Origin: an uncultured Patescibacteria group bacterium
GTDB lineage: Bacteria; Patescibacteriota; Minisyncoccia; Phycocordibacterales; UBA918
Reading direction: 5' to 3'
Assembly: GCA_934699595.1 (NCBI GenBank)
Contig: CAKUWT010000001.1
Span: forward strand, 7,839-71,838
Length of the DNA: 64,000 nt
Part shown: positions 4,706 through 51,967 of the stretch, piece by piece
Position numbering within the stretch: position 1 is the stretch's first letter
How the letters are laid out: every line of letters begins with the position of its first letter
Translations under genes and position numbers: made by a program
The notes under the pieces: generated by a model
The model's database searches: none
The model's input: the letters and a program-made list of their open reading frames with translations, nothing else
What the model was told of the DNA's origin: nothing

Positions 4706-6736
4706 ATGAACTTTAAACTCTCTACAGATAAAACTCCTGCTGGTGATCAGCCGCAAGCCATCGCTAAATTGGTTGCGGGTGTTGAAGCTGGCGACAAGCA
4801 TCAAACCCTTTTGGGTGTAACCGGTTCAGGAAAGACTTTTACCGCTGCTAACGTTATTCAGGCGATCCAGAAACCCACTCTAGTTATTGCGCACAATAAA
4901 ACCTTGGCGGCGCAGTTAGCGCAAGAATACCGCGATTTCTTTCCTGAGAATGCGGTGCATTATTTTGTCTCCTATTATGACTATTACCAGCCGGAGGCTT
5001 ACGTACCAACTTCTGATACCTATATTGAGAAAGAAGCGCAGATCAATGAGGAGATTGACCGTTTGCGTCATGCTTCTACTCAAGCACTTTTGACTCGTGA
5101 GGACGTTATTATCGTGGCCTCGGTGTCATGTATTTACGGTCTTGGTTCGCCGATTGAGTATAAAAAAAGATTGCAACGTATTGAGCGTGGCGCGCCACTG
5201 ACTCGTGGTGAGCTATTGCGGCTCTTGGTGGATATGTATTTTACTCGCACCAATGCTGACCTCACTCCTGGTACTTTTCGAGCGGTTGGCAATACTGTGG
5301 AATTAATGCCAACCAATGAACGGGCGGTTTTTCGTTTTGGTTTTCAAGGGGCGACAGTGTCTTCCATTACTAAAATTAACAGCGTCTCGCGTGCCATTGT
5401 CGCGGAGCAAGAAGTTTTTTATCTTTTTCCGGCTAAGCACTTTGTGACGCCAGAAGATGAGCGTCAGGTAGCTTATGAAGATATTAAACTTGAGCTTGAA
5501 CAACAATTGGCTCACTTCAAAAAGGAGGGGAAAATATTGGAAGCGGAACGCTTACGGCGTCGGACAGAATATGACTTAGCCTTGATTCGTGAAGTTGGTT
5601 ACTGTAACGGTATTGAGAACTACTCACGCCACTTTGACCGACGCGCTCCTGGTGAGCCGCCTTACACGTTGCTGGATTACTTCCCGCATCAGGCCGATGG
5701 TACCCCAGATTTTTTGACTATTATTGATGAGTCGCATGTCACCATTCCGCAAATTGGTGGTATGTATAATGGCGACCGCGCTCGTAAAAATACCTTGGTA
5801 GAGCATGGCTTTCGTTTACCTAGTGCAGTCGATAATCGCCCGTTGCAATTCTCTGAATTTGAAGAAAAGGTTGGTCAACGTATTTACACCTCAGCCACCC
5901 CAGGGAAATACGAAAAGGCCCGATCAGCCGAGGACGGCGTACCGATGGTGGAGCAAATTATTCGTCCGACTGGTTTACTGGACCCGGTCATCGATTTGCG
6001 TCCGATTACTGAGCGAGGCGAATATCCTGGACAAGTGCAAGACTTTATTGACGAGGCGGTGAAAGTAATTGCTGGCGGCGCCCGTGTTTTAGCGACCACA
6101 CTTACCAAAAAAATGGCGGAAGACTTAGCTGAGTTCCTGACCGAAAGGGGAATCAATACTAAGTACATCCACAGTGACGTTAAAACGATTGAGCGGATCG
6201 AAATTTTGACCGATTTTCGTAAAGGGGTCTTTGACTGCTTGGTCGGAGTGAACTTGTTGCGGGAAGGGCTAGATTTACCTGAGGTCGAATTGGTGGCTAT
6301 ATTGGATGCGGACAAAGTTGGTTTCTTGCGCAGCGAAACGGCCTTGATTCAAACTATTGGTCGAGCCGCACGTAACGTGGAGGGCCGAGTGATTCTTTAT
6401 GCTGACGAGATAAATGATACTATTGACTCGGTAATTAAGGAAACCAACCGCCGTCGCCAGATCCAGCTAGACTATAATGAAAAACACAACATCACCCCAG
6501 TGACAATCGCTAAGGAGATTAAATCAATTGCTGACCAGTTGCGTACTACCCACGACGAAACGGTGGAAACACTGCTCGATATTGATATTGATTTATACAA
6601 ACGCAACCCCGCCAAAACACTCAAAGAAAAACGCCGACAGATGGCTGAGGCTGTTGAATTACTGGATTTTGAAACTGCAGCAGTTATTCGCGATGAGATT
6701 GCTTACTTGGAGGGGATGAAAGATGAGAAAAAATAA
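4706..6736 (+). CDS. uvrB: excinuclease ABC subunit B
   Basis: Walker A GVTGSGKTFT, SF2 helicase motifs, C-terminal UVR motif (AAVIRDEIAYLEG). Confidence 0.95.
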   Translation: MNFKLSTDKTPAGDQPQAIAKLVAGVEAGDKHQTLLGVTGSGKTFTAANVIQAIQKPTLVIAHNKTLAAQLAQEYRDFFPENAVHYFVSYYDYYQPEAYVPTSDTYIEKEAQINEEIDRLRHASTQALLTREDVIIVASVSCIYGLGSPIEYKKRLQRIERGAPLTRGELLRLLVDMYFTRTNADLTPGTFRAVGNTVELMPTNERAVFRFGFQGATVSSITKINSVSRAIVAEQEVFYLFPAKHFVTPEDERQVAYEDIKLELEQQLAHFKKEGKILEAERLRRRTEYDLALIREVGYCNGIENYSRHFDRRAPGEPPYTLLDYFPHQADGTPDFLTIIDESHVTIPQIGGMYNGDRARKNTLVEHGFRLPSAVDNRPLQFSEFEEKVGQRIYTSATPGKYEKARSAEDGVPMVEQIIRPTGLLDPVIDLRPITERGEYPGQVQDFIDEAVKVIAGGARVLATTLTKKMAEDLAEFLTERGINTKYIHSDVKTIERIEILTDFRKGVFDCLVGVNLLREGLDLPEVELVAILDADKVGFLRSETALIQTIGRAARNVEGRVILYADEINDTIDSVIKETNRRRQIQLDYNEKHNITPVTIAKEIKSIADQLRTTHDETVETLLDIDIDLYKRNPAKTLKEKRRQMAEAVELLDFETAAVIRDEIAYLEGMKDEKK

Positions 6737-6786
6737 ACCAACATTGCCTGATGAACTGGTGATAACTTTGACAGTTAGGTGATTTT

Positions 6787-7191
6787 GTGTTAAGGTCTGA
6801 GGAGTTGAGTAACTTAAAAAGATGGGGGGGGACTGAAGTGCTTAAGGTTCCAAACACTGTCCGGGAGATACTTTTTACAAGTATCTCAGACAGGTTGTTG
6901 CAAGATATCTTCTTGCGGCAGCAGCAGCAAGCGCACTTCGCATTCGTCGAGATGGTGCGCGGCACCTATCAGCTCGTCGAAGTCGCTGTTGCCTGTGAAA
7001 AAGTGATGGCCAGGCCTGGTCATATGGTCGTCACTCATCGCCAATCTTTCGAGGAGTGCATTTGGGAGGCAGTCGACAAGATGATTGAGCGATACTTGCT
7101 TTTAATCACCCAGGAGTTTCAGGAATTCTTTCCAGAACTCAACCAGAAAGCCATCAGTATTTTGGTCGGTTGGATAATCCTTGGTAAATAA
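6787..7191 (+). CDS. hypothetical protein
   Basis: ORF followed immediately by a strong + strand terminator; no recognisable motif; start uncertain. Confidence 0.35.
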   Translation: MLRSEELSNLKRWGGTEVLKVPNTVREILFTSISDRLLQDIFLRQQQQAHFAFVEMVRGTYQLVEVAVACEKVMARPGHMVVTHRQSFEECIWEAVDKMIERYLLLITQEFQEFFPELNQKAISILVGWIILGK

Positions 7192-7200
7192 GAAATGACG

Positions 7201-7233
7201 CAGTCCGCCTGGTGCTACCTAGGCGGACTTTTG
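7201..7233 (+). terminator. rho-independent terminator (AGTCCGCCT...AGGCGGACT plus TTTT)
   Basis: perfect 9-bp stem followed by a T run. Confidence 0.7.
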
Positions 7234-7318
7234 TACTGTGTGTTAACTTATCAATAATTATAGCCACAGTAGTGTTGATAAATCATATTTGATTGTTTGT
7301 TTGTGATAAAATTTTAGT

Positions 7319-7585
7319 ATGGAAGATAAACATATAAAGCGACTGTACTTATTGGGAGTGGTCAACTTTTTACTAGTGTTAGTGGTCTTATTATTAATTT
7401 TATTGACTGTCCCAACTCCGCAGCCAGTTGTTGATGTTGGTTTAAATGATGCTAACTATAATCCTGCAAACCAAAATGTAGGTGCGGACTTTCTACAGTT
7501 TGAAGAGGATGAAATGAGTGTACAAAATGTTGAGTCACTTGATGAGGATGGAAACCCTATTATTATTCGTCAGGAGCTAGAATAA
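7319..7585 (+). CDS. hypothetical small membrane-anchored protein
   Basis: N-terminal TM helix, acidic C-terminal tail; AT-rich promoter-like region upstream. Confidence 0.35.
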   Translation: MEDKHIKRLYLLGVVNFLLVLVVLLLILLTVPTPQPVVDVGLNDANYNPANQNVGADFLQFEEDEMSVQNVESLDEDGNPIIIRQELE

Positions 7586-7621
7586 TAACAATTAATTACA
7601 AGTATTAAGGTTACTTTATTT

Positions 7622-8245
7622 ATGAGAGATTTTTTAAGACTGTCGTTCTTACAAAAGAAAATTTATTTATATTTTTTTGTAGTTGTATTTTTTGGGTGCC
7701 TTTTTTTGACTCAGATTGTTTCTGCACAGAATTGGACGGCGCCGACCGGTGCTCCTCCATCTAGTAATACTGATAGGCCATTAAATGTTGGTAATCTACA
7801 ACAATACAAGACCGGTATCTTGGGAGCACTCGAATTTCGTTCTAACAAATATTGTGATAAAGACGGTGCTAATTGTTTTAACCCAGCTGTCGTGTCTGGC
7901 GGGGGTGTTGGAGGCACTTTAGAGTCGAAAGTGTTTACCTGGGCAACTTTTGAGCGTCCATCGGGTCCTGGTTCGGGACCTGGAGCCATTAGAGGTATGG
8001 TTCATACTGGTAGTGTTTCTAAGCGATGTCAAGAGTTAGGTTACGATTTTGGTGTGACATATCGGACTTTTTCTGAACAGCTTGTTAACCCTACGCAAAA
8101 CTGGTGTCGTTTTGCCAACGCCCGCACAGATAGTTGGGTGAATGATTATTATAATGGTGGCGATGGACCGACTGGAGGATCTTGGGTAAGAACCTCGTGT
8201 GTGCCGTATCAGAACGTTTCAGCCGCTATTTGTTTCAGAAATTAG
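7622..8245 (+). CDS. hypothetical secreted cysteine-rich protein
   Basis: N-terminal signal/TM (cleavage-like site after VSAQN), 8 Cys, Gly/Pro-rich; strong terminator downstream. Confidence 0.45.
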   Translation: MRDFLRLSFLQKKIYLYFFVVVFFGCLFLTQIVSAQNWTAPTGAPPSSNTDRPLNVGNLQQYKTGILGALEFRSNKYCDKDGANCFNPAVVSGGGVGGTLESKVFTWATFERPSGPGSGPGAIRGMVHTGSVSKRCQELGYDFGVTYRTFSEQLVNPTQNWCRFANARTDSWVNDYYNGGDGPTGGSWVRTSCVPYQNVSAAICFRN

Positions 8246-8277
8246 CTTCACTACTTAAGTTAGTTAAGGCAAATAAA

Positions 8278-8310
8278 AAGCTCATCACCTGATGAGCTTT
8301 TTATTTTTTA
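8278..8310 (+). terminator. rho-independent terminator (AAGCTCATCA/TGATGAGCTT plus TTTTTATTTTTT)
   Basis: perfect 10-bp inverted repeat plus a long T run. Confidence 0.8.
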
Positions 8311-8382
8311 TTGGTGCTATGAGCTGGAGCGGTGGGTTTAAAAGGAGTGGTAAATATTCGCCGAGAAAAAACTTGACAACTG

Positions 8383-8391
8383 TGCTATAAT
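8383..8391 (+). promoter_or_regulatory. extended -10 promoter element TGcTATAAT upstream of uvrA
   Basis: TGCTATAAT at 8383-8391; the TTGACA at 8374-8379 is too close to act as its -35. Confidence 0.4.
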
Positions 8392-8409
8392 GGCAAATGA
8401 AGCTACCAA

Positions 8410-8432
8410 CCCCACCGCTTGCTGCGGTGGGG
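8410..8432 (+). promoter_or_regulatory. GC-rich hairpin (CCCCACCGC-ttgct-GCGGTGGGG) in the uvrA 5' leader
   Basis: perfect 9-bp stem between the -10 box and the uvrA ATG, followed by a G/T-rich tract. Confidence 0.4.
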
Positions 8433-8465
8433 TGGTGTTTGTTACTAAACTGAGAAATTTATTAT

Positions 8466-11165
8466 ATGGCCACAAAAAAAGATCCGAAAGAAGCGAATAA
8501 TTCCAAGCAACCAGCCAAGGAGACTACTGCATCAAAAAAGTCATTAGCAACTAAGATTACCACTAAGTGGAGTGACCGTAATGAGAAAATCGTGGTGCGG
8601 GGGGCTCGTACGCATAATTTAAAAAATATTGATGTAGAAATGCCACGCGGAAAGATGATTGCTGTAACAGGTCCTTCAGGTTCGGGTAAGTCCTCGTTAG
8701 CTTTTGATACTATTTTTGCGGAAGGACAACGACGTTACGTGGAGTCACTCTCTCCCTACGCTCGACAATTCCTCAACCAGATGCAAAAACCGGATGTAGA
8801 TGAGATTTCTGGTTTGTCTCCAGCCATCTCCATTGATCAAAAATCAGCCAGTCGTAACCCCCGTTCGACGGTGGCCACTATTACGGAGATTTATGACTAT
8901 CTGCGAATTCTCTACGCGCGTATTGGTCAGCCATATTGTCTTGATGTAGACACACCGATTCAAAAACTGTCACAAGACGAAATTTTGGATATTATTTTAA
9001 AGTCTATTACTGATCGAGAAGTGAAAGACGCGACAAAGAAAGACAGTGAGAAGGTGCTGGGAATTGAGGTTAGTAAGGGGCGGGTGGTGATTTTTGCCCC
9101 GGTAGTAGTGGGGCGTAAGGGGGAGTATTACCAGCTACTCTATGATTTACTGAATAAGGGTTTTGAAACGGTTAAAATTGACGGACAGATTAAGCAGTTG
9201 CGTGAACGGATAGAGTTATCCAAAACTAAGCGTCACGATATTGATGTCTTGGTGGACGAGATTTACGTTTCCGAATTTAGCGATGACCCAAAGGGCTCTC
9301 ATGAACGACTGTCTGAAGCTATAGAAGTGGCACTCGGCGTGGCGAATGGATTGGTTAAAATTGAGAGTCCCGGGGGAGAAACCCGTACTTTGTCAGCCAA
9401 GTTCATTTGTCCAGTAGACGGATCGTCTTTTCCAGAAGTGGAGCCACGACTCTTCTCCTTCAACTCACCTTACGGCGCCTGTCCAGAGTGTAATGGTTTG
9501 GGGGTAGTTGGACTGTTTAATGATGAGGAATGTCCGGTTTGTCACGGCGCTCGGCTGCGGAAGGAGGCCTTACGTGTGTACCTTGGAGGTGACGTCGATT
9601 CTTTAGGTATAAATATTGTCGACTTCACCGCAATGACCATTAAAGAGGCAGCCGTTTTTATCGAACGTTTACGTCTAACTCCGCAACAACAAGAAATAGC
9701 TTGGCCGGCTTTGCGGGAGATTATGGAACGGCTGGAATTTATGAATAATGTAGGTATTGAGTATCTTACTCTAGATCGCCGCGCCAATACTTTGTCTGGC
9801 GGCGAGGCGCAGCGTATTCGCCTAGCTTCCCAGCTTGGTTCCGGTTTGGTAGGGGCTTTATATGTACTGGATGAGCCGACAATCGGCTTGCATCAGCGCG
9901 ATAATGATCGCTTGATTAAAACCTTAACCGAGCTACGTGACCTCGGTAACACTATCGTGGTGGTTGAGCATGATGAAGATACTATTAAAGCGGCCGACTA
10001 CTTGGTAGACATCGGCCCTGGGGCTGGAGTCCGAGGAGGTGAGGTAATTGTGACTGGCTATATCAGTGAGTTACTAGCTGCCCCGAAAAATAACAGTGGT
10101 TCCGTAACGCTTGATTATTTACGAGGTGATAAAGTAATCCCAGTTCCCAAACGGCGCACTGGTGAAAAAGGCTCACTAAAAATTAAGGGTGGTAAGGCTT
10201 TTAATATTAAAAACTTAGCAGTAGATATCCCACTAGGGCGTCTAGTTGTAGTGACAGGGGTGTCTGGATCGGGCAAATCTACTTTTATGTACCAGATTGT
10301 GCATAAAAACTTAAAAGCCCGACTTGACCAGCGCAGCCGTTCAACTAAGACTTTTAATTGCGCCAGCTTTACCGGTACTGAGTATTTAGGGAGAGAAATT
10401 CTCATTGATCAGTCACCGATCGGTCGTACTCCCCGCTCTAACCCAGCTACTTATACGGGTGCGTTTACGCATATCCGTGAATTATTCGCCGCTACCACCG
10501 AGGCACAGGTGCGTGGCTGGAAGCCAGGGCGCTTTAGTTTTAACGTCAAGGGTGGCCGCTGTGAAGCTTGCCAAGGGAATGGAGTGATTGCGGTGGAAAT
10601 GCATTTCTTGCCGACAGTGTACGTGACCTGTGATGTCTGTGATGGTAAGCGCTTTACTAAGGAGACCCTAGAAGTTACCTATCGAAAGAAAAATATTTAT
10701 GAGGTGCTGGAAATGAATATTGAGGAAGCGCATGTTTTCTTTCACGATATTCCCGCTATTCAAGAGCGGCTACATACCCTGGTTGAGGTCGGGTTGGGTT
10801 ATCTTAAGTTGGGACAAAGCGCCACCACTTTGTCTGGCGGAGAAGCTCAGCGTGTAAAAATCGCTTCGGAATTGTATAAGCAACATACACAAAAAACAAT
10901 CTACTTGCTGGATGAGCCTACTATTGGCTTGCATTATGAAGATGTGAAGAAACTAATTGAGATTCTGCAGGAGCTGGTAGACCGAGGTAATACCGTGATG
11001 GTGATCGAGCATAACTTAGACTTAGTGAAATCAGCCGATTATGTGATCGATATTGGTCCCGAAGGAGGGGTGGGAGGTGGTCAAATTATTGCCAAAGGAA
11101 CCCCGGAACAAGTGGCTGAGAATCAGAAATCCTATACTGGCTACTACCTAAAGAAGATTCTTTAG
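8466..11165 (+). CDS. uvrA: excinuclease ABC subunit A
   Basis: two ABC ATPase modules ([19 protein letters not shown]), zinc-finger CxxC motifs, LSGGEAQR signatures. Confidence 0.95.
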
Positions 11166-11226
11166 CGGCTGCTAGCTAGCCATACGCTGTTGCGGTGAGC
11201 GCTGTCGTGGAGAGTTTAATAAAAAT

Positions 11227-12462
11227 ATGCAAAAAGACACTTTTGACCAACTGACATTACCTGATAAGCCGGGGGTGTATTTCTTTTTAGGTAAACATAA
11301 GAAGATTCTGTATATTGGTAAGGCTACCTCGTTACGCAATCGGGTGCGCAGCTACTTTGCTCCAGATTTGGTCGTAAAGCGTTCGGAACTGATTGCGCAA
11401 ATGGTAGCGGAGGCTGAGACTGTTGAAGTAACTGAAACGGACAGCGTTTTAGAGGCCTTGCTTCTAGAAACGAATCTTATTCGTACGCACAAACCGCACT
11501 TCAATACCCGTAGTAAAGATGATAAGTCTTACAATCACGTCATTATTACCAATGAGGAGTGGCCACGAGTGCTGGTGGTGCGAGGTAAGGATTTACGTGA
11601 AGGTAATATTGAAGAAAAGATCAAGTATCATTTTGGGCCGTTCCCAAGTAGTGGTTTATTGCGTGAAGCCCTAAAGATTATTCGGAAACTTTTTCAGTAT
11701 TATGATACTAAAGATCCAGTAGGGTCAGAGCGAACCAAGTTTGCCCGCGGTAAAGTAGATTTTAATCGACAAATTGGACTTTATCCACATGAGTCTAACC
11801 GAGAGCAATATCTAAAAACGATTAAACATTTGCGGTGGTTTTTTGAGGGGAAGAAACAGCGGGTAATTAAGGCGCTGGAGAAGGAAATGATGACAGCTGC
11901 CAAAGCTGAGGAGTTTGAAGTGGCCAATCATCTGAAAAAGCAAATCTTTGCTTTGCAACATATTCAAGACATTTCCTTGATTAAAGTTGATCGCTTGGAT
12001 AGTCGTACTGGAGAGAGCTTGCGGATTGAAGCCTATGATGTGGCTCATCATCAGGGTCAGAGTATGGTTGGAGTAATGACAGTCCTTGAAGGGAGTGAAC
12101 CTAGAAAAAGTGACTATCGGAAGTTTAATATTAAGAGTGTCAAAGACGCTAATGACCCGGCCGCCCTGAAAGAATTGCTGGAAAGACGTCTCGGGCATCC
12201 AGAGTGGCCACTGCCAAATATCGTGGTGGTGGACGGTAATGCGGTGCAAAAAAAGGTGGCAGAAAAGTTACTGGCGGAGGCCGAGCTACTGATTCCGGTT
12301 GTGGCGGTCGTCAAAGACGACCGCCACCGACCGAACCACCTCCTTGGCACCCAGGCACTTATCGATGCCAATAAGCTAGAAATTCTCCACGCCAACGCCG
12401 AAGCCCACCGCTTCGCCATTAGTTTTCATCGACAGAAACAGCGGAAGAGACTGAGTTCTTAA
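11227..12462 (+). CDS. uvrC: excinuclease ABC subunit C, compact form lacking the C-terminal (HhH)2 domain
   Basis: GIY-YIG (GVYFFLGKHKKILYIGKATSLRNR), UVR motif, RNase H-like domain (EAYDVAH...VVVDGN...AEAHRF); ends at 411 aa. Confidence 0.85.
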   Translation: MQKDTFDQLTLPDKPGVYFFLGKHKKILYIGKATSLRNRVRSYFAPDLVVKRSELIAQMVAEAETVEVTETDSVLEALLLETNLIRTHKPHFNTRSKDDKSYNHVIITNEEWPRVLVVRGKDLREGNIEEKIKYHFGPFPSSGLLREALKIIRKLFQYYDTKDPVGSERTKFARGKVDFNRQIGLYPHESNREQYLKTIKHLRWFFEGKKQRVIKALEKEMMTAAKAEEFEVANHLKKQIFALQHIQDISLIKVDRLDSRTGESLRIEAYDVAHHQGQSMVGVMTVLEGSEPRKSDYRKFNIKSVKDANDPAALKELLERRLGHPEWPLPNIVVVDGNAVQKKVAEKLLAEAELLIPVVAVVKDDRHRPNHLLGTQALIDANKLEILHANAEAHRFAISFHRQKQRKRLSS

Positions 12463-12472
12463 GGTAACTAAA

Positions 12473-12697
12473 GTGTTATACTTTTCCAATATGAGAGCTT
12501 TGATTATTTTTTTGATTACTCTACTTAGTATTGGGTTGTTTATAAAAATGACCGTTGATAGTTTGCCAGAGGAGGCTCCGGAAATGTTGCATAATCCCAG
12601 CCAAAATACTTTGCCAGACCTGGCCCCGGTTCAGGGGCGAGTTGATCAGCAGAACCAAGCCATTCAAAAGGCACTAGATGTGACTGGGCAGCATTAG
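12473..12697 (+). CDS. hypothetical small membrane protein
   Basis: 74-aa ORF with N-terminal TM; weak support. Confidence 0.2.
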   Translation: MLYFSNMRALIIFLITLLSIGLFIKMTVDSLPEEAPEMLHNPSQNTLPDLAPVQGRVDQQNQAIQKALDVTGQH

Positions 12698-12718
12698 TAA
12701 GTAAAGTCTCTCTTTTGG

Positions 12719-13813
12719 TTATTTTTCCTCAGTAAACCACTGGTTGCCGCCCAAATGCCATACCGAAATACTTTCCACGCCCAAGTCTCTCAAGAGTTTT
12801 TTCTTGATATCTAATGAAGTGGTGTCGTTATAGAAAAAGACTTGACCGTCTTTCACCCAAGTCATTTCTGCTGAAGCTGGGTCACGGATGGCATCATTAA
12901 ATCCCGGCAGTCTTTTTACGGCACTATAGTCGAGAATCTGGATATCATACTCACCGCGAGTTCCTGTATAGGCGTAACTAGGGATGCCGAAAGTGAGGCG
13001 GTCAGATGCCAAGTTAGTAGTGACATACTTGACCACGCTTTGCATCCACTCCAAGGGAGCGATCGCAACACCGGCACCGTAGTCGTATTGGTGATCGTAT
13101 GTCATTATCACTAGCTCATCCACAGGTAAATTTTGCCAATCTGCATAATGCCAAACAAACCAGGACTGAGATAACTCGTCCCAAATAGCCGGAGCGGTCA
13201 CTAGTAGTTTCTTGTTGCGACTGTGGAGCTCGTTACCTAAAATAGTGACAAGGTTTTGGTAGTCTAAGTAAAGCTCCTCATTCCAGTCGCCAAAGCTTTC
13301 AAAATCAAGTTCTAATCCTGACAGATCGTAGGTCTCGAGCCATTGCAGAGCTAGATCAAAATCGGTTAAGTTGGGGTCTGTATTCCTGAGGAAAGATTGA
13401 ATATTTTCTGCACCTAAAGCAGAAATGGTGAGATATTGCTCAGTAGTGTTTTGTTTTAGTGCAGGTATTAGCTCTGGGGCAAAACCTAGGCAGGCATCAT
13501 CGGTCGTGATTATCTCCAATTGACCAGCAGCGATAGTCAGCCATTCAATTTTAACCGTCGTAATTTTTCGACCATCATTCAGTTCGGAAAGAGCTGTACA
13601 GTTTTTACCATCAGGATAGATCCATGCAGCCAGGCGTTCTGATTTTTGTATATTTTTAGTGTAGGTAATAGCTCGGAGGGTGTTTGTGGGGGAGGAGGAG
13701 AGTTTAATTAAGATATAAAGTATTAGTAATAAGACTATTAGACTAACCAATATTCCGCGCAGCCACCAACGATTGTGCCAATATTTTTTATAAATAGTCA
13801 AGAATAAATTCAC
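12719..13813 (-). CDS. glycoside hydrolase family 18-like protein, membrane anchored
   Basis: N-terminal TM; GH18-like strand motifs SGLELDFE (DxDxE region, first Asp replaced) and MTYD. Confidence 0.5.
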   Translation of the reverse strand: MNLFLTIYKKYWHNRWWLRGILVSLIVLLLILYILIKLSSSPTNTLRAITYTKNIQKSERLAAWIYPDGKNCTALSELNDGRKITTVKIEWLTIAAGQLEIITTDDACLGFAPELIPALKQNTTEQYLTISALGAENIQSFLRNTDPNLTDFDLALQWLETYDLSGLELDFESFGDWNEELYLDYQNLVTILGNELHSRNKKLLVTAPAIWDELSQSWFVWHYADWQNLPVDELVIMTYDHQYDYGAGVAIAPLEWMQSVVKYVTTNLASDRLTFGIPSYAYTGTRGEYDIQILDYSAVKRLPGFNDAIRDPASAEMTWVKDGQVFFYNDTTSLDIKKKLLRDLGVESISVWHLGGNQWFTEEK

Positions 13814-13831
13814 GGTAGTTTTTCTATTTTA

Positions 13832-15226
13832 TTATTTAGTAAAGACTCCTCGCCGCTCCCACTGCTGCCATTTCAGATCCTGTCTCTTAAGGTGACCGAA
13901 GTAAGCTTTAAATAGGGCATACGTTTCCACAAAAGTAGAGATATAAAACAACAACCAGCCAATCGGTGCTAAGAGTACAAATTTCCAGACGTCATGACGA
14001 TAGTTGTCGAAAATCACTTGTATTAAAAACATGGAAGATACGACGATAATACCTGAGATAAAAGAAGTAAAGTCTTTCGTTAATAGAGAAAAAATATATA
14101 AGAAAGCTAAGAACAAACCTTCAAAAGCCAACTGTAAATCACCAATGACTGCTAGGGGTAATATGACCCATGTAAGTAATCGATTATGTTTCTTATCACG
14201 ACTAAAGAACATATTCTTATGTTCCACAAAGGTTTCAATGCGACCCCGTTTCCAGCGGAGTCGTTGTTTGAGAAGTCCGGTTAAGGTGGGGGCACCTTCG
14301 GTATAAAGAATAGCGTCCTCAGCATAAACTGTCCGCATTCCGGCTGACTGTACACGCAGAGATAGCTCAATATCTTCGGTGATATTTGTAGTACTGTATG
14401 GTCCAAGTTCGGTGAAGACCTGGCGACGAAAGGCTCCGGCTGCACCCCCGATGATGTAAATACTGTTTACTAATGACTCTGCTTTTTTGAAGTAAAAAGA
14501 GAAGAGAAATTCTAAATACTGTACGACACCTATAATTTTATCTGTGTTGCCAATTCGTACATTACCAACCGCCGCCATCACTTTCGGATCCGAAAACTGT
14601 TTGACGAAATTACCGATGGTATTGGGGGGTACGAAGCAATCGGCATCAATTGATATGATGATCTCACCCCGGGCTTTACTTAGTCCATGATTGAGGGCGT
14701 GTCCCTTACCCTGCGTACCCTCGTAGTAATAACTGAGACGAATACCACGATAAAACAACTGGTTCTCTCGTTTTTTTAAGGCCTTGAGAATTTTTACTTG
14801 TCGACGTAGAAGTGAATCTGAGCCATCGGTAGAGGCATTGTCGACCACGATAATTTCCAAGTTTGTGTATTTACTAGTCAGGAGACTGCGGACGGTCGTG
14901 ATAATACCTTCTCCCTCATTCCAGGCAGGAATAATCACACTAACTAAGGGGCGAAAATCAGGATGATGATGGCGGCGAAGGCGTTGCAGTTGAACGATCT
15001 CGTTCCAAGGACTAAGTACCATGTAGATTGTGTATTTTGTCAGTAGTAAGCTGGCGAAAAAGATAATCACAACACGTAGGCTAAAGAAGGTATCACTATC
15101 AGTGCTTGGTGGCAGCGTAAAAACTGATAGTAGTATCCCGCCTAGAATTGCGTATAGGGTTAGATAAACTGCTAATTTTTTGTAAGAGAAGGATTTCATA
15201 ATTAAGTTTAAATGACAGTCAGTCAT
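13832..15226 (-). CDS. processive family-2 glycosyltransferase (PgaC/NodC/chitin- or cellulose-synthase-like)
   Basis: VVDNASTDGS, DAD, TED and QRLRW (QxxRW) motifs; N- and C-terminal TM helices. Confidence 0.8.
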   Translation of the reverse strand: MTDCHLNLIMKSFSYKKLAVYLTLYAILGGILLSVFTLPPSTDSDTFFSLRVVIIFFASLLLTKYTIYMVLSPWNEIVQLQRLRRHHHPDFRPLVSVIIPAWNEGEGIITTVRSLLTSKYTNLEIIVVDNASTDGSDSLLRRQVKILKALKKRENQLFYRGIRLSYYYEGTQGKGHALNHGLSKARGEIIISIDADCFVPPNTIGNFVKQFSDPKVMAAVGNVRIGNTDKIIGVVQYLEFLFSFYFKKAESLVNSIYIIGGAAGAFRRQVFTELGPYSTTNITEDIELSLRVQSAGMRTVYAEDAILYTEGAPTLTGLLKQRLRWKRGRIETFVEHKNMFFSRDKKHNRLLTWVILPLAVIGDLQLAFEGLFLAFLYIFSLLTKDFTSFISGIIVVSSMFLIQVIFDNYRHDVWKFVLLAPIGWLLFYISTFVETYALFKAYFGHLKRQDLKWQQWERRGVFTK

Positions 15227-15419
15227 TTAAGAACAGGAGGATGTACAGTTTTGCCAAGAGATTAGAAAGGATAATGGTACTAATAAAAATAGTGACGACC
15301 AGGTAAGTTCTATTTTCTAGGGAATTGATTAAGGTTATTCCTAAGACTATGATGATGACGACCAGTGTAAAGTGGCTTAGAATACTCAAGTTGCGTCGTA
15401 GAATTGAAGAATTTTTCAT
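15219..15419 (-). CDS. small 2-TM membrane protein translationally coupled upstream of the GT2 synthase
   Basis: 66-aa ORF whose stop overlaps the GT2 start by 8 nt. Confidence 0.35.
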   Translation of the reverse strand: MKNSSILRRNLSILSHFTLVVIIIVLGITLINSLENRTYLVVTIFISTIILSNLLAKLYILLFLND

Positions 15420-15469
15420 GGTATAAAATACATTTATTCGAGTACAGTGTGCGGGTTTTATCAGGGGTA

Positions 15470-15489
15470 TAGTTGATGATAGTCAACTA
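15470..15489. promoter_or_regulatory. perfect 7-N6-7 palindrome TAGTTGA-TGATAG-TCAACTA upstream of umuD (candidate operator)
   Basis: read directly; about 145 bp upstream of umuD. Confidence 0.3.
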
Positions 15490-15604
15490 ATGCGTACTTA
15501 AAGAGTAAGTGCTAGAGGGTAAAACTCAGCTGTGAACTGCTTTGGTGAGTTCTCAAAGTAATTTACTCTATCAATTCTATTCTTTATTTTGTCATTTAGC
15601 AATT

Positions 15605-15632
15605 TTGAACCTAGGCAAGAGACTGTTAAAAT
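15605..15632 (+). promoter_or_regulatory. candidate promoter TTGAAC-N16-TGtTAAAAT directly abutting the umuD start
   Basis: -35/-10-like hexamers with 16-nt spacing and a TG extension; the -10 ends 1 nt before the annotated ATG, so a leaderless transcript may start at the second ATG (15639). Confidence 0.3.
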
Positions 15633-16070
15633 ATGAAAATGAAAAGCCCTGCTCGTAAAAAATCTCCAACCAGATCAGTAGATAAAGAAAACCCACTCTA
15701 TGTTGCTAGACCAGCTGCCGGTTTTCCTGGCATGGCCGAAGATGGGGTGGAGGAGATGCTCAATCTACATACTCATTTAGTGACACATCCGGAGGCTACT
15801 TTTTTTGTGAGAGCGACAGGAGACTCTATGGAGGGTGTAGGAATTTTCTCGGGAGATATTCTGGTAGTGGACCGTAGTCTTGAGCCTCGACACGGCAGTA
15901 TTGTGGTGGCCGTTTTTGACGGTGGATTTGTAGTAAAGCAATTACAAGGTCGGCATCCAGATTATCAATTAGTTTCTGCCAATGAGCAGTATCCACCGAT
16001 CAGGATTGCCGATCATGATAATTGCTTTATTTGGGGTGTTGTTAGTAGTGCGGTGCACAAATTTGCCTAA
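15633..16070 (+). CDS. umuD: peptidase S24 LexA/UmuD-like protein lacking an N-terminal DNA-binding domain
   Basis: Ala-Gly cleavage site (ARPAAGFPG), Ser nucleophile (GDSM), Lys (VVKQL); 145 aa. Confidence 0.8.
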   Translation: MKMKSPARKKSPTRSVDKENPLYVARPAAGFPGMAEDGVEEMLNLHTHLVTHPEATFFVRATGDSMEGVGIFSGDILVVDRSLEPRHGSIVVAVFDGGFVVKQLQGRHPDYQLVSANEQYPPIRIADHDNCFIWGVVSSAVHKFA

Positions 16071-16182
16071 CCTGACAAGTTATTCTCAACTGGGCAAGTT
16101 TGTAAGATTTGCGGTCGCGGCTGGTCTTCACTAGAGTATAGGGACTAGTTTTAGCAGTTAGTAATTTATTTAAAATATCAGT

Positions 16183-17373
16183 ATGAAGAAGACTATAATG
16201 AGTTTAATGGTGGTGGGCGCGTTGTCCTTGATGTTGGTGCCACAAGTAGGGCAGGCCTATGAGGGAACAGTCAGTGGCTGGGTACCGTGGTTTCAAGAGC
16301 TCCCAGGCATTGTTAGTGTGCTCCAAAATATCGACAAGCTCGATACGGTTTATCCCTTCGTTTACGAAATCGATAGTCAGGGACAGATTGTCGACAAAAC
16401 CGTCACTAAAATGGATGGACCGATCTGGCCTCTTTTGACCAAGCTTCTACAGGCTAAAGAGGTGACCGTTATTCCCACCATTGCTTGGTTTGATGGTCAG
16501 CAGATTGACGAGATTTTGAGCGATGACCGTAATCGGGAGGCGCACATTGCCGACATTGTGGCTTTGGTTAAGAAAGGGAATTATGATGGTATCAATATCG
16601 ACTACGAGCAAAAGCTCGCCAAGACCAGAGATGACTTCTCCAGTTTTTTGCAAGAATTAAAAGCCGAGCTTGGTAATAAGCGGTTGTCTTGCGCGGTCGA
16701 AGCCAGAATGCCGTTAGATTCGCGCTTTAAGAATATTCCTAGTGATTACGAGTATGCCAATGACTATGAGGCGATTGGTAAATACTGTGACCGAGTGGAG
16801 ATTATGGCCTATGACCAGCAACGAGCTGATATCAAGCTAAACGAAGAGCGATCTGGCGTACCTTATATGCCAGTTGCTGATAAGGATTGGGTAGAAAAGG
16901 TAATTAAGGAATCCTTGAAAGAATTACCAAAAGAGAAGGTGGTACTGGGAGTGGCCACTTACGGCCGAGCCTGGGACGTGGCGGTAGCCCCTAACTGGTA
17001 CCGTGACTATACCCGGGTGGCCTCATTAAACCATCCTCGCATCGTGGAATTAGCGGCTAAGTACAAAACCAGCATCGGTCGTACTGCGGGTGGCGAAGGG
17101 GCGTTTAGTTACTTCCCTGAGGATTCGGTTTATCAGATTCTCAATGCCCTGCCAACTCCAGCTGGGACACGTCCAGGATATGAAGCTGCTGCCAAAGCCC
17201 TGCTGTTTGCTGATGCTACTAAAACAGAAATTCCGGTACGCTTCGTTACCTATTCTGATGCTAGCGCGATTGGCGATAAACTGACCTTGATTGATAAGTA
17301 TAAATTGAACGGTGTCACCATTTTCAAAATCGATGGTGAGGAAGACCAGAAGATGTGGAACTTGTTCCGATAG
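16183..17373 (+). CDS. glycoside hydrolase family 18 protein (chitinase-like), secreted
   Basis: signal peptide; canonical GH18 motifs DGINIDYE and IMAYD. Confidence 0.7.
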   Translation: MKKTIMSLMVVGALSLMLVPQVGQAYEGTVSGWVPWFQELPGIVSVLQNIDKLDTVYPFVYEIDSQGQIVDKTVTKMDGPIWPLLTKLLQAKEVTVIPTIAWFDGQQIDEILSDDRNREAHIADIVALVKKGNYDGINIDYEQKLAKTRDDFSSFLQELKAELGNKRLSCAVEARMPLDSRFKNIPSDYEYANDYEAIGKYCDRVEIMAYDQQRADIKLNEERSGVPYMPVADKDWVEKVIKESLKELPKEKVVLGVATYGRAWDVAVAPNWYRDYTRVASLNHPRIVELAAKYKTSIGRTAGGEGAFSYFPEDSVYQILNALPTPAGTRPGYEAAAKALLFADATKTEIPVRFVTYSDASAIGDKLTLIDKYKLNGVTIFKIDGEEDQKMWNLFR

Positions 17374-17379
17374 TTGACT

Positions 17380-17432
17380 GGTAGGTAAAAACTAAGGCCG
17401 CCCTCTCACAAGGGCGGCCTTAGTTTTTACCT
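17380..17432. terminator. bidirectional rho-independent terminator (22-bp perfect inverted repeat with A/T runs on both sides)
   Basis: TAGGTAAAAACTAAGGCCGCCC-tctcaca-GGGCGGCCTTAGTTTTTACCTA. Confidence 0.8.
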
Positions 17433-17460
17433 AATTAAAGAGTGTTAAAATGACGAGACT

Positions 17461-18708
17461 ATGGAAACCTATATCGGCGTAGTGGACGGTAATAATTTCT
17501 TTGTTTCTTGCGAACGTTTATTCCGTCCGGATTTGTTGCAGCAGCCGGTACTAGTACTTTCGAGTAACGATGGTTGCGTGGTGGCTCGCTCACAAGAGGT
17601 TAAGGACTTAGGGATTGTCATGGGGATGCCTTATTTTCAAATCAAGGATTTGATAAGACAAAAGGGCGTCACCGTTTTTTCGTCAAACTTCAAACTGTAT
17701 CGCAATCTGTCTCAGAGATTATTTTCGGTATTAAAAAAAGAGGTGGAGGAATTTGAGCAATATTCTATCGATGAAGCCTTTTTTCTTCTTAAGGCAAAAG
17801 ATAGACAAGCGGCTGAGGTAGTTGCTAGGGAACTGAAGGTGAAGCTTGAGAGGTTGGTAGGTATCCCGGTTTCCATTGGACTGGGTGCCAATAAGACCCA
17901 GGCTAAATATGCCAGCCGTTTAGCTAAAAGTGGCGATGGTCTCCGGGTGTTAGACGTGTCTACTTGGCAGAGTTTAACTAAGGAGATAGATCTGCACTTA
18001 CTTTGGGGAGTGGGCGCCAAGTCGGCCGAAAGATACCGCCGGGAAGGGCTGCTAAAAGTAGTTGACCTACTTAATTATCCACTCAGTTTGGTGCGAGGGA
18101 AGTTTGGCGTAGTGGGGGAAAGGTTACGTGCTGAATTAGATGGAGAAATGATCTTTTTACTCAACCCTGTCTCCGGAGGACAGCAGTCGTTAACCGATTC
18201 TCGAAGTTTGAAAAAAGCTACCTATAAACAAGCAGAGGTTCTAACTGTGCTGGCTGGTCACGTGGAGGCCGCGTCTGCTACCTTGCGAAAAAAGCAGTTG
18301 CTAGCAGAAACCTTAACAGTGATTGCTTACCCTGCCCGAGGACAAAGTGGCGGTTTCTCAGAAACTATTTCCTTACCCGCGCCAACTAGTAATACTTCAG
18401 TGATTATGAAATATGCCAACGCAGTGTTGGTCAAAAGATTTTCCCCCGAGGTAGGCTATCGAAAGTTGGGTATCACCCTTGGTTCCTTAATGCCAGAAAA
18501 TTTTCAAAACGGCTCTTTGTTTACTGAGACAGAAACGGTCTTGGATGAGGGTCTGTGGCAAACCGTTGATATGTTAAATAGCCGCTTCCACAGCACGGTA
18601 CTGCGGAGTGGGGTCAGTTTGCAGCCAAGAGGACTGCTGCCAGCTTCAAGTTGGCGGTCACCGGAGTATGTCTCTGCTTGGCAAGAGATCCCGACCGTAC
18701 AGTCTTAA
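17461..18708 (+). CDS. umuC: Y-family DNA polymerase (UmuC/DinB-like translesion polymerase)
   Basis: N-terminal VDGNNFFVSCERL...LSSNDGCVVA motif, IDEAF catalytic motif. Confidence 0.85.
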   Translation: METYIGVVDGNNFFVSCERLFRPDLLQQPVLVLSSNDGCVVARSQEVKDLGIVMGMPYFQIKDLIRQKGVTVFSSNFKLYRNLSQRLFSVLKKEVEEFEQYSIDEAFFLLKAKDRQAAEVVARELKVKLERLVGIPVSIGLGANKTQAKYASRLAKSGDGLRVLDVSTWQSLTKEIDLHLLWGVGAKSAERYRREGLLKVVDLLNYPLSLVRGKFGVVGERLRAELDGEMIFLLNPVSGGQQSLTDSRSLKKATYKQAEVLTVLAGHVEAASATLRKKQLLAETLTVIAYPARGQSGGFSETISLPAPTSNTSVIMKYANAVLVKRFSPEVGYRKLGITLGSLMPENFQNGSLFTETETVLDEGLWQTVDMLNSRFHSTVLRSGVSLQPRGLLPASSWRSPEYVSAWQEIPTVQS

Positions 18709-18742
18709 GTGAAGTGTAAGCGACGTTTGTCCTAAATGTCTT

Positions 18743-18766
18743 TAATGTCCTTTATAAAGGACATTA
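18743..18766. promoter_or_regulatory. 24-bp perfect palindrome TAATGTCCTTTA|TAAAGGACATTA in the hsp20 upstream region
   Basis: read directly; not followed by a T run; about 240 bp upstream of hsp20. Confidence 0.35.
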
Positions 18767-19007
18767 GTCAAAATAACGTTATTCTGTGTGATATTTGTTA
18801 ATGACAAGAGATTATAAATAATTGTTTTCAACATACTTTAAGAAATCCGAGACCTTGTTGTCGCTTGGTATGCTTACATCCTGTCCCCTGGCTTTACCTG
18901 ATGCAATCTTAAAATATTCTTGAGGGCACATAATCTGCTTTGAGTAAATTTGTGTGGGTAAAACTGACGGTATGGAAAAGTGTTTGTACTATACTTGAGT
19001 AAAGGAT

Positions 19008-19436
19008 ATGTTTTTTCTCAACCGCTTAAAAAAACAAGGGGTCAAAATTACACAGCCGATTGTAGCCAAGGCCACCAGTAGACCCATTGGTAAAAATGTC
19101 ACTGAACTGTTATTGGATGTTTCTGAAACAAAACATGAGATTGTCATCTTCGCACAGGTACCAGGTGCAGATATTGATGACATCTCCATCTCTGTAGAAG
19201 GTGATGCAGATATTATTATTATTGAAGGACGACAGCTAAGACCCGAACAATTAGTCTTTTCTAAAAAGGAACTGACGGAAAGAGTCTTTCATATCGAAGA
19301 ATGTCAGTGGGGTAATTTCTACCGTCGAATTATTTTGCCAGAAAGTATCCATATGGAAAAAACTGAGGCTCGGATTAAGGATGGGGTTTTGTTACTCACG
19401 CTACCGCTCTTATCAGCTCAGAAAAAACGTAAATAA
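19008..19436 (+). CDS. Hsp20/alpha-crystallin family small heat-shock protein
   Basis: alpha-crystallin domain (IVIFAQVPGADIDDISISVEGD...GVLLLTLP); AAGGA SD. Confidence 0.8.
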   Translation: MFFLNRLKKQGVKITQPIVAKATSRPIGKNVTELLLDVSETKHEIVIFAQVPGADIDDISISVEGDADIIIIEGRQLRPEQLVFSKKELTERVFHIEECQWGNFYRRIILPESIHMEKTEARIKDGVLLLTLPLLSAQKKRK

Positions 19437-42000: not shown

Positions 42001-42336
42001 TTGGAAGAAGTGTTTGGTAACTTAAATAATCTGCAACAGATTATCAATAGTTATACTTCTCAAGTAGAAGGTTTTAGTCAAGAAGAATTGTCACAACGGC
42101 TGGCAGATAACCGCACAGTCTTTCAACAAATCAGTGAGCGATCAATTGATGATTTGTTGGCCTTGCACGGTCAACCTGATGAGGTTCTCAAGTCAGTAAT
42201 CCCGAGTACTCCAGAAAATACCGCTGCTCTCCGCGCTTGGTTGAAAGTGATTGAGGATATGAAAGTAAGAGGAGAAGTTTCACTGTGGGATACTTTGGTC
42301 AGCTCTTCTTATCACATTAAGTTACAAGAAAAATAA
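39016..42336 (+). CDS. large acidic, low-complexity protein with central TM segment and LysM-like motif
   Basis: 1106 aa, D/E/S/T/P-rich; TM about residues 370-395; YVVTRGDRLWKIV LysM-like stretch. Confidence 0.55.
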   Translation: MERGPEPQIGSGDREVVKSFEDLETLKERFTIGGGKEDTKDADLSPLQPFANYDAGQSKVTLGEVNVDTRSGDDKITEEKTDKSVSDGNEHGDIEVPSYVPEADLASAEKQSVLENGLKDVEKSDLIANAGDYTELLSAIDKIGTVPSSQGSYAPKELKDLINQVVTGKKTLDYITRTYGLRDAVNRLIDQVAVEDTFLNNDKYEAYADKRTELLENGKSFRALEKDYQTEVDNFYNQSGLAGNFNKVKSFLGFRPQLPKAVQQKRDEYVKAKAAYARLLNDSLQLRSEVERVKVLSDIKTGEGLNIERFENRSYNQEDTATKAAFLQKFVLKPNQELLAKQEVYLLNEDQRAVRDRLLQKFMSSKYKTPVLIGGGALLVASGGLSTLAAMGAGFGVRRLTRGGVEKAEADRDKLKQSFSLDKLEEQESNLLSAEETLRVKKRNRKYLSAAAAAAAGGLVNTYGDGLANSLSPISRAEASIDPEVIYGNESLDIPSYIDLTSTDVTTPDDSVIPGFNMTDPVVDEGLPESDFESDSTLEVPGEIQNEALQETDPTTADITTDNTFVRERLTYSDRQPDLSSVNNLGAPREVDRALSFGEVRSPDSFETVYQTGQEITPDIEVVPHEYVVTRGDRLWKIVEREFPDYLRDLNVSQRNAALDALFKTIQNDPETLQIIGLQSGNVDLIYPGESLDLSPLGEKLRSVVQERFGVSVDSIDTNPDTYLETSQVSSVSSNPTPELDKLTEAPSPENATESEVVKAVIPNKPTDVDLSSASKGGAVTPTSEDEFVTPVTEKTPGADIPDGTPLAPGVGENISDSISPVSDTSVEIDINELTRSLHTPVHYNPEVLPNLSEVRIPSHEELIVTFGSEEAYSARVREIIAQIEDVHERGFFARLLGSGDNSYDLIAGTPVEEVVNLAEQGDQAIEDALADTDIKPNALRAWAKFVQGFSGSHLAGLKLEDLVAIYAVRTELGKSLDTENFTLLKAENLPTTAQLEEVFGNLNNLQQIINSYTSQVEGFSQEELSQRLADNRTVFQQISERSIDDLLALHGQPDEVLKSVIPSTPENTAALRAWLKVIEDMKVRGEVSLWDTLVSSSYHIKLQEK

Positions 42337-43883: not shown

Positions 43884-44058
43884 AAATATTGACGGTACGT
43901 CGTCAGGAATAGGTTCAAGGTTTTGGTAGTGATAGACCAGGCAATCGTCTCACATTGCGCAGGTGAGATCTGGCATCTCCTGGGTCCTAACTCTGTTTGC
44001 CATTTTGGCCCCCTAATGTTCAGTTCCGTCTAGAAAGTACAGTATTATTTTCACAGTG

Positions 44059-44071
44059 TCAAGAGGTTGCT
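44059..44071. repeat. 13-nt direct repeat of the tRNA-Asn 3' end (GCTCCGCGGGCAG); left island boundary (attL-like)
   Basis: exact match to 51311-51323, followed by degenerate tRNA-like sequence (ATTCGA.CTGC). Confidence 0.7.
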
Positions 44072-44243
44072 CCGCGGGCAGATATTTACCCAGATTCGAC
44101 TGCCATCTAAAGATCCTGAAGGCCGTCATAATCAAAAGTCTCAATTATTAGAAACAGAGATATAAAGGAATGCTTGAGCTATGTTAGATTTTCAATACTG
44201 ATTTGTCTTGTAAAGCATTGTCAAGTATAATAACATTAAGCCT

Positions 44244-44426: not shown

Positions 44427-44427
44427 T

Positions 44428-51903: not shown

Positions 51904-51967
51904 AAGGGAAGTTTTCCAAAATTTTAGAACAAAGTTTATTAACTATTAGATTTAGCTGAGAATAACT

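Follow-up and report, generated by a model that had tools for sequence, protein, structure and literature searches.

Within a 64,000-nucleotide stretch of contig CAKUWT010000001.1 from an uncultured Patescibacteria group bacterium (GenBank assembly GCA_934699595.1), here called the window, positions 12719 to 18708 carry two divergent gene sets. The minus strand encodes a small open reading frame (ORF), a family 2 glycosyltransferase (GT2), and a family 18 glycoside hydrolase (GH18a), in that order, and the plus strand encodes a UmuD-like protein, a second GH18 protein (GH18b), and a UmuC-like protein. We consider it moderately probable that the minus-strand operon is a monoderm-type, synthase-dependent module for a poly-N-acetylglucosamine (poly-GlcNAc) polymer, with GH18a as its processing hydrolase. 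The combination of small ORF, GT2, and GH18a recurs across dozens of divergent genomes, which is more than chance. GH18b is a separate secreted enzyme in a conserved umuD-GH18b-umuC unit that is loosely linked to the GT2 operon. A previous sequence-only reading had joined the GT2 and both GH18 proteins into one locus that makes and remodels a GlcNAc-based surface polymer. For the GT2, the small protein, and GH18a, this idea stands as the best inference; for GH18b, it does not. The full-text literature that we searched contains no description of the small protein-GT2-GH18a cassette or of the umuD-GH18-umuC arrangement.

Layout of the operon

The first gene of the operon encodes 66 amino acids with two hydrophobic segments (15219..15419, minus strand). 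The GT2 gene follows on the same strand, spanning 13832..15226 from the ATG at 15226 (464 amino acids) or 13832..15199 from the ATG at 15199 (455 amino acids), and its product matches Pfam GT2 families. GH18a is the third gene (12719..13813, minus strand; 364 amino acids; Pfam GH18) and starts 18 nt past the GT2 stop codon, which places this membrane-anchored protein downstream of the synthase and not upstream, as had been read before. The ATG at 15226 creates an 8-nt overlap with the stop of the small ORF; the ATG at 15199 leaves a 19-nt gap and gives a protein of the same length as the identical stored protein P0001. The three genes form a tight operon whichever ATG is used. Whether the two proteins are translationally coupled, as proposed earlier, depends on that choice; the partnership itself is conserved, as described below.

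A 213-bp intergenic region (15420..15632) separates the operon from umuD-GH18b-umuC and presumably holds both divergent promoters. A promoter and terminator scan of positions 12300 to 19100 was uninformative, returning counts equal to those in shuffled sequence. All five ORFs listed in the sequence-only reading are present. Pfam and NCBIfam support the assignments of the GT2, GH18a, GH18b, UmuD, and UmuC and leave the small ORF without a family match; the Pfam gathering score for GH18 (PF00704) is 29.6 bits. The closest relatives of every gene are found in Patescibacteria metagenome-assembled genomes, such as those of Kaiserbacteria and Paceibacteria.

The GT2 resembles processive synthases

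The GT2 sequence contains VDNASTD as its first aspartate motif, SIDADC (DxD), NITEDIELS (TED), and QRLRWKRG, all four of which are invariant in an alignment of 24 homologs, as well as a C-terminal WQxWxRxG. Most of the hallmarks previously noted are thus in place, the exception being a literal "DD," where the protein reads VDNASTD. Glycos_transf_2 matches at 100.6 bits, and hydropathy suggests two N-terminal and three to four C-terminal transmembrane helices with a cytoplasmic GT-A domain between them. An AlphaFold2 model based on 24 homologs (pLDDT 81, pTM 0.83) has as its best PDB fold the Chlorella virus hyaluronan synthase (CvHAS), aligned at full length over about 438 columns with a TM-score of 0.65 to 0.67, followed by Xenopus HAS1, PcManGT, BcsA, and chitin synthases. 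Since the fold alignments to HAS, BcsA, and chitin synthases are full length, the model supports a membrane-embedded, processive, channel-forming synthase, in agreement with the sequence-only reading, and polymer synthesis and export are predicted on the same basis. A sequence and profile search of the PDB retrieved PcManGT, BcsA, and generic GT2s and no PgaC, NodC, HAS, or Chs at E<0.01, so the fold search was needed to see the likeness to HAS and Chs.

Profile comparisons place the protein nearest to the synthases of poly-N-acetylglucosamine (PNAG). The best NCBIfam model is PgaC_IcaA (TIGR03937), at 165.2 bits (E 2e-48) under an equivalog cut-off of 422.3 bits, followed by the XrtG-associated GT (117 bits), CelA (71 bits), and NodC (65 bits, against a cut-off of 550). 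Comparisons with annotated proteins by tblastn or blastp rank a Bacillus mycoides fusion protein (164 bits) and a MatB-like CE4-GT2 protein of Kocuria (155 bits) ahead of Klebsiella PgaC (129 bits), Bacillus anthracis HasA (94 bits), Rhizobium tropici NodC (74 bits), and BcsA (60 bits). Identity is approximately 28% to the PNAG synthases MatB and PgaC/IcaA and 55 to 69% to hundreds of proteins from Patescibacteria and Ktedonobacteria. In a neighbor-joining tree with NodC as the chosen outgroup, the GT2 family forms a separate clade beside the MatB-like proteins and the Bacillus fusion, then PgaC, and then HasA. The alignment shows a short TED loop, as in PgaC, and the GEDR-type loop and insertion of NodC and HasA are absent. 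The kinship with NodC and chitin synthases that had been suggested therefore gives way to one with PgaC/IcaA by profile and CvHAS by fold. By these sequence relationships, the GT2 family is a distinct relative of the PNAG synthases that lies outside the PgaC/IcaA equivalog and is not NodC-like.

A small membrane protein accompanies the synthase

The 66-amino-acid ORF encodes two hydrophobic helices, and of 79 related loci, 58 have an ORF of 45 to 127 amino acids with hydrophobic helices that abuts the start of the GT2 gene. A jackhmmer search from the window protein recovers 56 of the 60 abutting ORFs; run against the full set of 7,582 small ORFs from the loci, it gives 61 matches, of which 54 abut a GT2. 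The family shares the signature SY[KR]xVxxFLxxIxLSNxxAK in helix 2. Ktedonobacteria encode a protein of about 340 amino acids upstream of the GT2 (L005 3427-4464, also in L035, L036, L042, L045, and L084), which overlaps the GT2 start and has no Pfam match, and its C-terminal 50 or so residues match the small-subunit profile in these six loci (E 6e-6 to 2e-4). The clade formed by L046, L060, L065, and L076 has a GT2 with an N-terminal extension of two transmembrane helices, which may be a fusion of the small subunit: the pattern is similar by eye, and the hidden Markov model match is not significant.

These relationships point to a genuine and previously unnamed subunit family that would contact the GT2 physically. 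By its size and position, the small protein can be regarded as an analog of PgaD/IcaD and not as a homolog; PF13994 recognizes a genuine PgaD (98 bits) but not the window protein.

GH18a is a membrane-anchored candidate enzyme

GH18a scores 37 bits on Pfam GH18, over the cut-off. It has a single N-terminal transmembrane helix at residues 14 to 44, which bears out the membrane anchor read earlier, and the basic residues before this helix indicate that the catalytic domain faces outward. The window protein carries SGLELDFE and MTYD. E168, D170, E172, M237, Y239, and D240, together with two cysteines, are invariant in 31 homologs; TG[IV]E[IL]DFE and MxYD are present in 43 to 44 of 44 family sequences, and the terminal SxWHLGGNQWF is invariant or nearly so across 31 to 44 homologs. 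An exhaustive search with the family profile returned 229 cluster representatives at E<=1e-30. The AlphaFold2 model is a GH18 barrel (pLDDT 91) whose best fold matches are 5jh8, SleL (4s3j), 4wiw, 4q6t, and SI-CLP, with true chitinases coming after these. Pfam detects no LysM or other wall-binding domain and no carbohydrate-binding module.

The catalytic strand had been described as partly degenerate. It reads SxxExDxE and departs from the canonical DxxDxDxE of chitinases, a variant that is conserved across the family; the DxE and MxYD are invariant. DxE is intact in both GH18 proteins of the window, and the aspartate at the fourth position is replaced by glutamate in GH18a and by asparagine in GH18b. 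With its catalytic residues invariant, GH18a is not a lectin-type or inhibitor-type pseudo-enzyme, nor is GH18b a degenerate protein of the lectin type, possibilities that the sequence-only reading had raised against its own proposal. Because DxE and MxYD are invariant in both proteins, GH18a and GH18b are predicted to be active and probably act on acetamido sugars. Both belong to the YaaH/YdhD/SleL-like GH18 subgroup of the xGxxxDxE type.

A 36%-identical homolog of GH18a, annotated YdhD, stands in Legionella busanensis (L004 6001-6990) with no GT2 nearby and may have been acquired horizontally. Members of the GH18a family exceeding 1,000 amino acids were considered as GH18-GT2 fusions and rejected, as Pfam sees in them only GH18 and weak fn3 or phage-tail-like domains. 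P0291 (1,098 amino acids) and P0298 (776 amino acids) combine a GH18a-type domain with fn3 and weak, sub-cut-off matches to YQBQ-like and tip attachment protein J Ig-like domains, and proteins of this type might be phage depolymerases against the same glycan.

The synthase-hydrolase pairing is conserved across phyla

A scan of species-representative genomes yielded 80 GT2 loci, of which 72 have room for neighbor counts. The 80 loci are spread over many Patescibacteria lineages and cultured Ktedonobacteria, namely Ktedonobacter racemifer, Ktedonospora formicarum, Ktedonosporobacter rubrisoli, and Dictyobacter aurantiacus. In K. racemifer DSM 44963 (L042), the GT2-GH18a operon occupies about 3.595-3.598 Mb of NZ_ADVG01000001.1. 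A GH18a-type gene directly adjoins the GT2 gene in 33 of the 72 loci, and the GT2 tree shows this partnership in three distinct clades, which include the cultured Ktedonobacteria. L046, L060, and L065 also have a CE4 deacetylase gene within the cassette.

The same activities are joined in one polypeptide on Bacillus mycoides plasmid p237 (NZ_CP036118.1; L089 2745-6095). This 1,116-amino-acid protein, WP_215576262.1, is annotated "glycosyltransferase" and has the order TM-GH18-CE4-TM-GT2, with SGINIDFE and MMYDEHY in the GH18 domain and a PgaC/MatB-like GT2. Its GH18 domain is nearer to GH18b than to GH18a (73 versus 43 bits), and the full-text literature searched holds no description of the fusion. 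Taken together, the fusion, the conservation of the operon across phyla, and the link to deacetylases are most economically explained by a common substrate that contains GlcNAc.

A further pairing occurs on a Kocuria rosea plasmid, where a "chitinase" gene (L093 2887-3873) is convergent to a MatB-like CE4-GT2 gene. This protein relates to GH18a with a BLASTP E of 0.058 and scores 22.9 bits on Pfam GH18, below the cut-off, so that their kinship is suggestive only. Given the Kocuria pairing, one may ask whether MatA of Streptomyces, which is reported to have no known domains, is a divergent GH18.

GH18b belongs to a umuD-GH18b-umuC unit

The plus-strand genes encode a UmuD-like S24 autopeptidase (15633..16070; 145 amino acids), GH18b (16183..17373; 396 amino acids; Pfam GH18), and a UmuC-like Y-family DNA polymerase (17461..18708; 415 amino acids; IMS, IMS_C, and DUF4113). 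The first matches Peptidase_S24 (E 2e-29) and the model for the polymerase V autoproteolytic subunit, NF007621, at 143.8 bits against a cut-off of 110, and its AG cleavage site, GDSM serine, and VVKQL lysine are visible. The UmuC-like protein scores 212 bits on NF002955, under the cut-off of 431. The set has the makeup of a umuDC (pol V) operon, unusual in that a GH18 gene stands between umuD and umuC.

GH18b scores 95.3 bits on Pfam GH18 and has a signal-peptide-like N terminus. It was taken for a secreted, canonical GH18, and DGINIDYE, MAYD, and the N terminus fit that description; its DxxNxDxE is not the full canonical DxxDxDxE, a variant conserved across the family. D140, E142, M208, Y210, and D211 are invariant in 25 homologs. 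Its neighbors among PDB sequences are 5jh8, 4q6t, YdhD, and YaaH, identity to GH18a is only 23%, and Pfam finds no LysM or other wall-binding domain. The family is large, with 2,845 homologs; the 120 matches listed are 56 to 70% identical, and homologs are annotated "spore germination protein YaaH" in the sources.

The genomic context of GH18b was counted in 83 loci centered on it (L087, L088, and L095 to L174, named for the unit). Of the 66 loci with room on the upstream side, 55 have umuD immediately before GH18b, and umuC follows it in 43 of 52, often across gaps of less than 60 nt. Only 2 of the 83 loci have a GT2 of the window family within 8 kb, which, together with the opposite strand and the umuDC context, removes GH18b from the synthase locus to which it had been assigned. 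Viewed from the GT2, GH18b is within 8 kb in about seven loci, and in about eight further loci the second GH18 is a paralog of GH18a; a second GH18 near the synthase is thus recurrent. L060 carries umuD-GH18a-GT2-CE4-GH18b-umuC on one strand (6119-13193). L065 and L076, of the same clade, likewise have the whole cassette between umuD and umuC.

A CAP-domain gene often lies directly upstream of umuD-GH18b-umuC. A search for LexA boxes covered 160 nt ahead of umuD in each of 72 loci, and no gapped palindrome occurred in more than seven loci; with a CAP-domain gene directly upstream of umuD in many of them, the promoter may be further away. There is accordingly no sequence evidence for SOS control of the unit. 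Monoderms have damage-induced extracytoplasmic division inhibitors, such as YneA and ChiZ, and one idea is that umuD-GH18b-umuC is analogous to these.

Comparison with known systems

The closest known counterparts of the window operon are the PNAG systems, pgaABCD of Escherichia coli, icaADBC of staphylococci, and matAB of Streptomyces. They share with it a GT2 of the same broad family, transmembrane layout, and TED and QRLRW motifs, as well as a small two-helix membrane protein adjoining the synthase (PgaD/IcaD). Some relatives of the window operon add CE4 deacetylases, like PgaB-N, IcaB, and MatB-N; GH18a parallels the extracytoplasmic TIM-barrel hydrolase PgaB-GH153, and no outer-membrane porin is encoded, a trait shared with the ica and mat systems of monoderms. 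Unlike PgaD/IcaD, however, the window small protein is non-homologous and encoded upstream of the GT2, and the hydrolase, unlike that of PgaB, is a GH18 with an intact DxE and not a GH153. Nor does the window operon have a deacetylase or an IcaC-type acyltransferase. It thus departs from the PNAG systems in its distinct, sub-threshold GT2 family, its non-homologous upstream small subunit, and a GH18 where PgaB carries GH153. Surveyed PNAG operons were reported to have the hydrolase domain exclusively in Gram-negative pga loci with few exceptions, which are dual deacetylase-hydrolase sequences in the sporulating Gram-positives Lachnoclostridium phytofermentans and Kitasatospora setae, and the survey never mentions GH18 (PMC7112194).

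The B. mycoides fusion resembles the window operon in its GT2 part, the best plasmid-encoded match, and in a YaaH/YdhD-type GH18 outside the membrane. It differs in being a single, plasmid-borne polypeptide of a Bacillota host that includes a CE4 and in having no separate small subunit that we could see. NodC, chitin synthases, and hyaluronan synthases all use UDP-GlcNAc. These enzymes are likewise processive membrane GT2s with a similar overall fold, QxxRW, and a C-terminal W...R motif, but the GEDR loop and insertion are theirs, identity to the window GT2 is 23 to 27%, and they lie outside its clade in the tree. SleL, YaaH, and YdhD, along with the structural-genomics entries 5jh8, 4q6t, and 4wiw, belong to the same subgroup as both window GH18s and are their best sequence or fold matches. 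The SleL/YaaH cortex-lytic class combines LysM with GH18 in a sporulation context, in contrast to both window proteins, in which neither feature is found; GH18a instead has a transmembrane anchor and a synthase partner, and GH18b sits between umuD and umuC.

Proposed function and alternative explanations

In the mechanism that we propose, the GT2 would work at the cytoplasmic face, where it would polymerize a UDP-activated N-acetylhexosamine (UDP-GlcNAc being the most likely) and thread the growing beta-linked chain through a channel of its own transmembrane helices. The small protein would be an obligatory membrane subunit of the synthase and a functional analog of PgaD/IcaD. GH18a, tethered by its one N-terminal helix, would cleave the emerging polymer outside the cell by substrate-assisted catalysis, and its cutting could free chains, control how long they grow, or remove those that stall. 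Such a module would suit a cell that lacks an outer membrane, and its product would probably be a PNAG-type poly-GlcNAc, with a chitin-like beta-1,4 linkage as another possibility. GH18 catalysis requires a 2-acetamido group. This requirement, the PNAG synthases as nearest GT2 relatives, and the CE4 domains of related loci and of the fusion make a GlcNAc-based product the best inference. Processing or release hydrolases accompany other synthase-dependent systems, as exemplified by PgaB-GH153, BcsZ, PslG, and PelA (PMC5933820), and Streptomyces MatB has been tied experimentally to the making of PNAG (PMC5972031).

Several observations weigh against this proposal. At 165 of the required 422 bits and about 28% identity, the GT2 fails the PgaC/IcaA threshold, and its sugar and linkage could differ from those of PNAG. 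The 66-amino-acid protein has no Pfam or NCBIfam match and none to PgaD/IcaD, and the genes on either side of the window operon include no CE4 deacetylase. Nor is a GH18 obligatory for GT2 loci, since 26 of the 72 have a family of about 500 to 560 amino acids (DUF11-like with an additional C-terminal domain of no known type) in place of GH18a and 13 have neither. Among solved structures, those nearest to both GH18s include SleL and YaaH, which cut spore-cortex peptidoglycan. We also know of no GH18 that cleaves beta-1,6-GlcNAc, the known substrates (chitin, the N-glycan core, and peptidoglycan) being beta-1,4 linked, so the PNAG-like GT2 and the chemistry of GH18 point to different linkages, 1,6 and 1,4, respectively. 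As rough estimates by judgment and not computation, we give a PNAG-type product slightly more than half of the weight and a chitin-like product a quarter or a little more, leaving the remainder to other polymers.

In an alternative close to the sequence-only reading, the GT2 would make a beta-1,4-GlcNAc polymer or oligomer, namely bacterial chitin or a chito-oligosaccharide, and GH18a, possibly with GH18b, would trim it in the manner of a chitinase, which we regard as possible though doubtful. The characterized GH18 specificities are generally known to be for beta-1,4 bonds next to GlcNAc, and DxE and MxYD are kept in both window proteins. The GT2 also has a weak Pfam match to Chitin_synth_2 (E 8.9e-9), and the authors of the MatB study were unable to separate 1,4 from 1,6 linkage by sequence alone (PMC5972031). 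Nonetheless, the GT2 is far from NodC in score and in identity (23%), is without the GEDR-type motif and the loop insertion common to NodC and HasA, and groups with PNAG synthases in the tree, and the two GH18s are of the YaaH/YdhD-like subgroup and not processive chitinases. It is quite unlikely, in our view, that both GH18s are SleL/YaaH-like N-acetylglucosaminidases acting on the cell's own or a host's wall, with the GT2 adjacent merely through envelope co-regulation. In three clades, GH18a and the GT2 share a tight operon, neither GH18 has LysM or a wall-binding domain, and the joining of a YaaH/YdhD-like GH18 to CE4 and GT2 in B. mycoides would be difficult to account for if they had no substrate in common. 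The idea draws on the cortex-lytic SleL and YaaH, and also YdhD, among the nearest solved structures, on the YaaH annotation of homologs, on the solitary GH18a homolog of L. busanensis, and on the near-ubiquity of GH18b in these genomes independently of the GT2; for GH18b alone, it is quite plausible. A nutritional role, in which the GH18s degrade environmental chitin for carbon and nitrogen and the GT2 is unrelated, follows the metagenome papers on the candidate phyla radiation (CPR) that list GH18 genes as chitinases. We find it very improbable, given the membrane anchor of GH18a, its operon with a synthase and its freedom from carbohydrate-binding modules, and the place of GH18b inside a umuDC operon. 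A Parcubacteria bin bearing such a "chitinase" was likewise noted to have no genes for GlcNAc utilization (PMC9530719).

Other partner genes and features of the window

The family of about 500 to 560 amino acids that takes the place of GH18a is encoded after the GT2 in L018 (3225-4868), L021 (4794-6308), L029 (9367-11064), L040 (9390-10913), and about 22 more loci. Its C-terminal region has the strand-like motifs DVEPYLLP, VIPHFYD, MAYRN, and AQETG and looks like an unclassified TIM-barrel hydrolase. As a hidden GH18, it reaches a 20% probability with hhalign against the GH18a family, and Pfam sees only the DUF11-like part.

In the window, uvrB (4706-6736), uvrA (8466-11165), and uvrC (11227-12462) adjoin the synthase operon and the umuD and umuC genes, so that the glycan genes are embedded in a DNA-repair neighborhood; L001 likewise has uvrC near its GT2. 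Elsewhere, positions 44000 to 52000 have a low GC content of 0.355 to 0.383, compared with about 0.44 in the rest of the window. This stretch encodes a 1,161-amino-acid PLD-nuclease/SNF2-helicase protein and an overlapping 989-amino-acid Eco57I/MmeI-like N6-methyltransferase beside a tRNA-Asn (51310-51383), and it looks like an acquired restriction or defense island. An ORF of 1,106 amino acids at 39016-42336 has no Pfam match at E<0.001.

Implications

The GH18 genes of CPR bacteria are usually read as chitin degraders, and the two described here correct this habit of annotation, one being the partner of a synthase and the other a member of a umuDC operon. Our reading adds GH18 to the hydrolases that may accompany synthase-dependent exopolysaccharide systems and defines a candidate family of small synthase subunits, and in umuD-GH18b-umuC the gene for a secreted glycosidase is joined to genes of translesion DNA synthesis. 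A broader proposition combines two claims: that the YaaH-like GH18 subfamily is a dedicated hydrolase of PNAG-type synthases across monoderm phyla (Patescibacteria, Ktedonobacteria, Bacillota, and Actinomycetota) and that GH18b is co-expressed with a translesion polymerase. We hold this combination to be rather improbable. If it were true, either GH18 would gain a specificity not known for it, toward beta-1,6-GlcNAc, or these bacteria would make a chitin-like beta-1,4 polymer, and DNA damage would trigger remodeling of the wall or surface glycan, leading to division delay, host detachment, or a change in the matrix.

Patescibacteria are thought to live attached to other cells, and the surface molecules that mediate this attachment are largely unknown. 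Orthologs with about 56% identity are present in cultured strains of Ktedonobacter, Dictyobacter, and Ktedonospora, which makes the prediction directly testable. One concrete candidate for a role in attachment is a compact, conserved operon that would export and trim an adhesive GlcNAc polymer.

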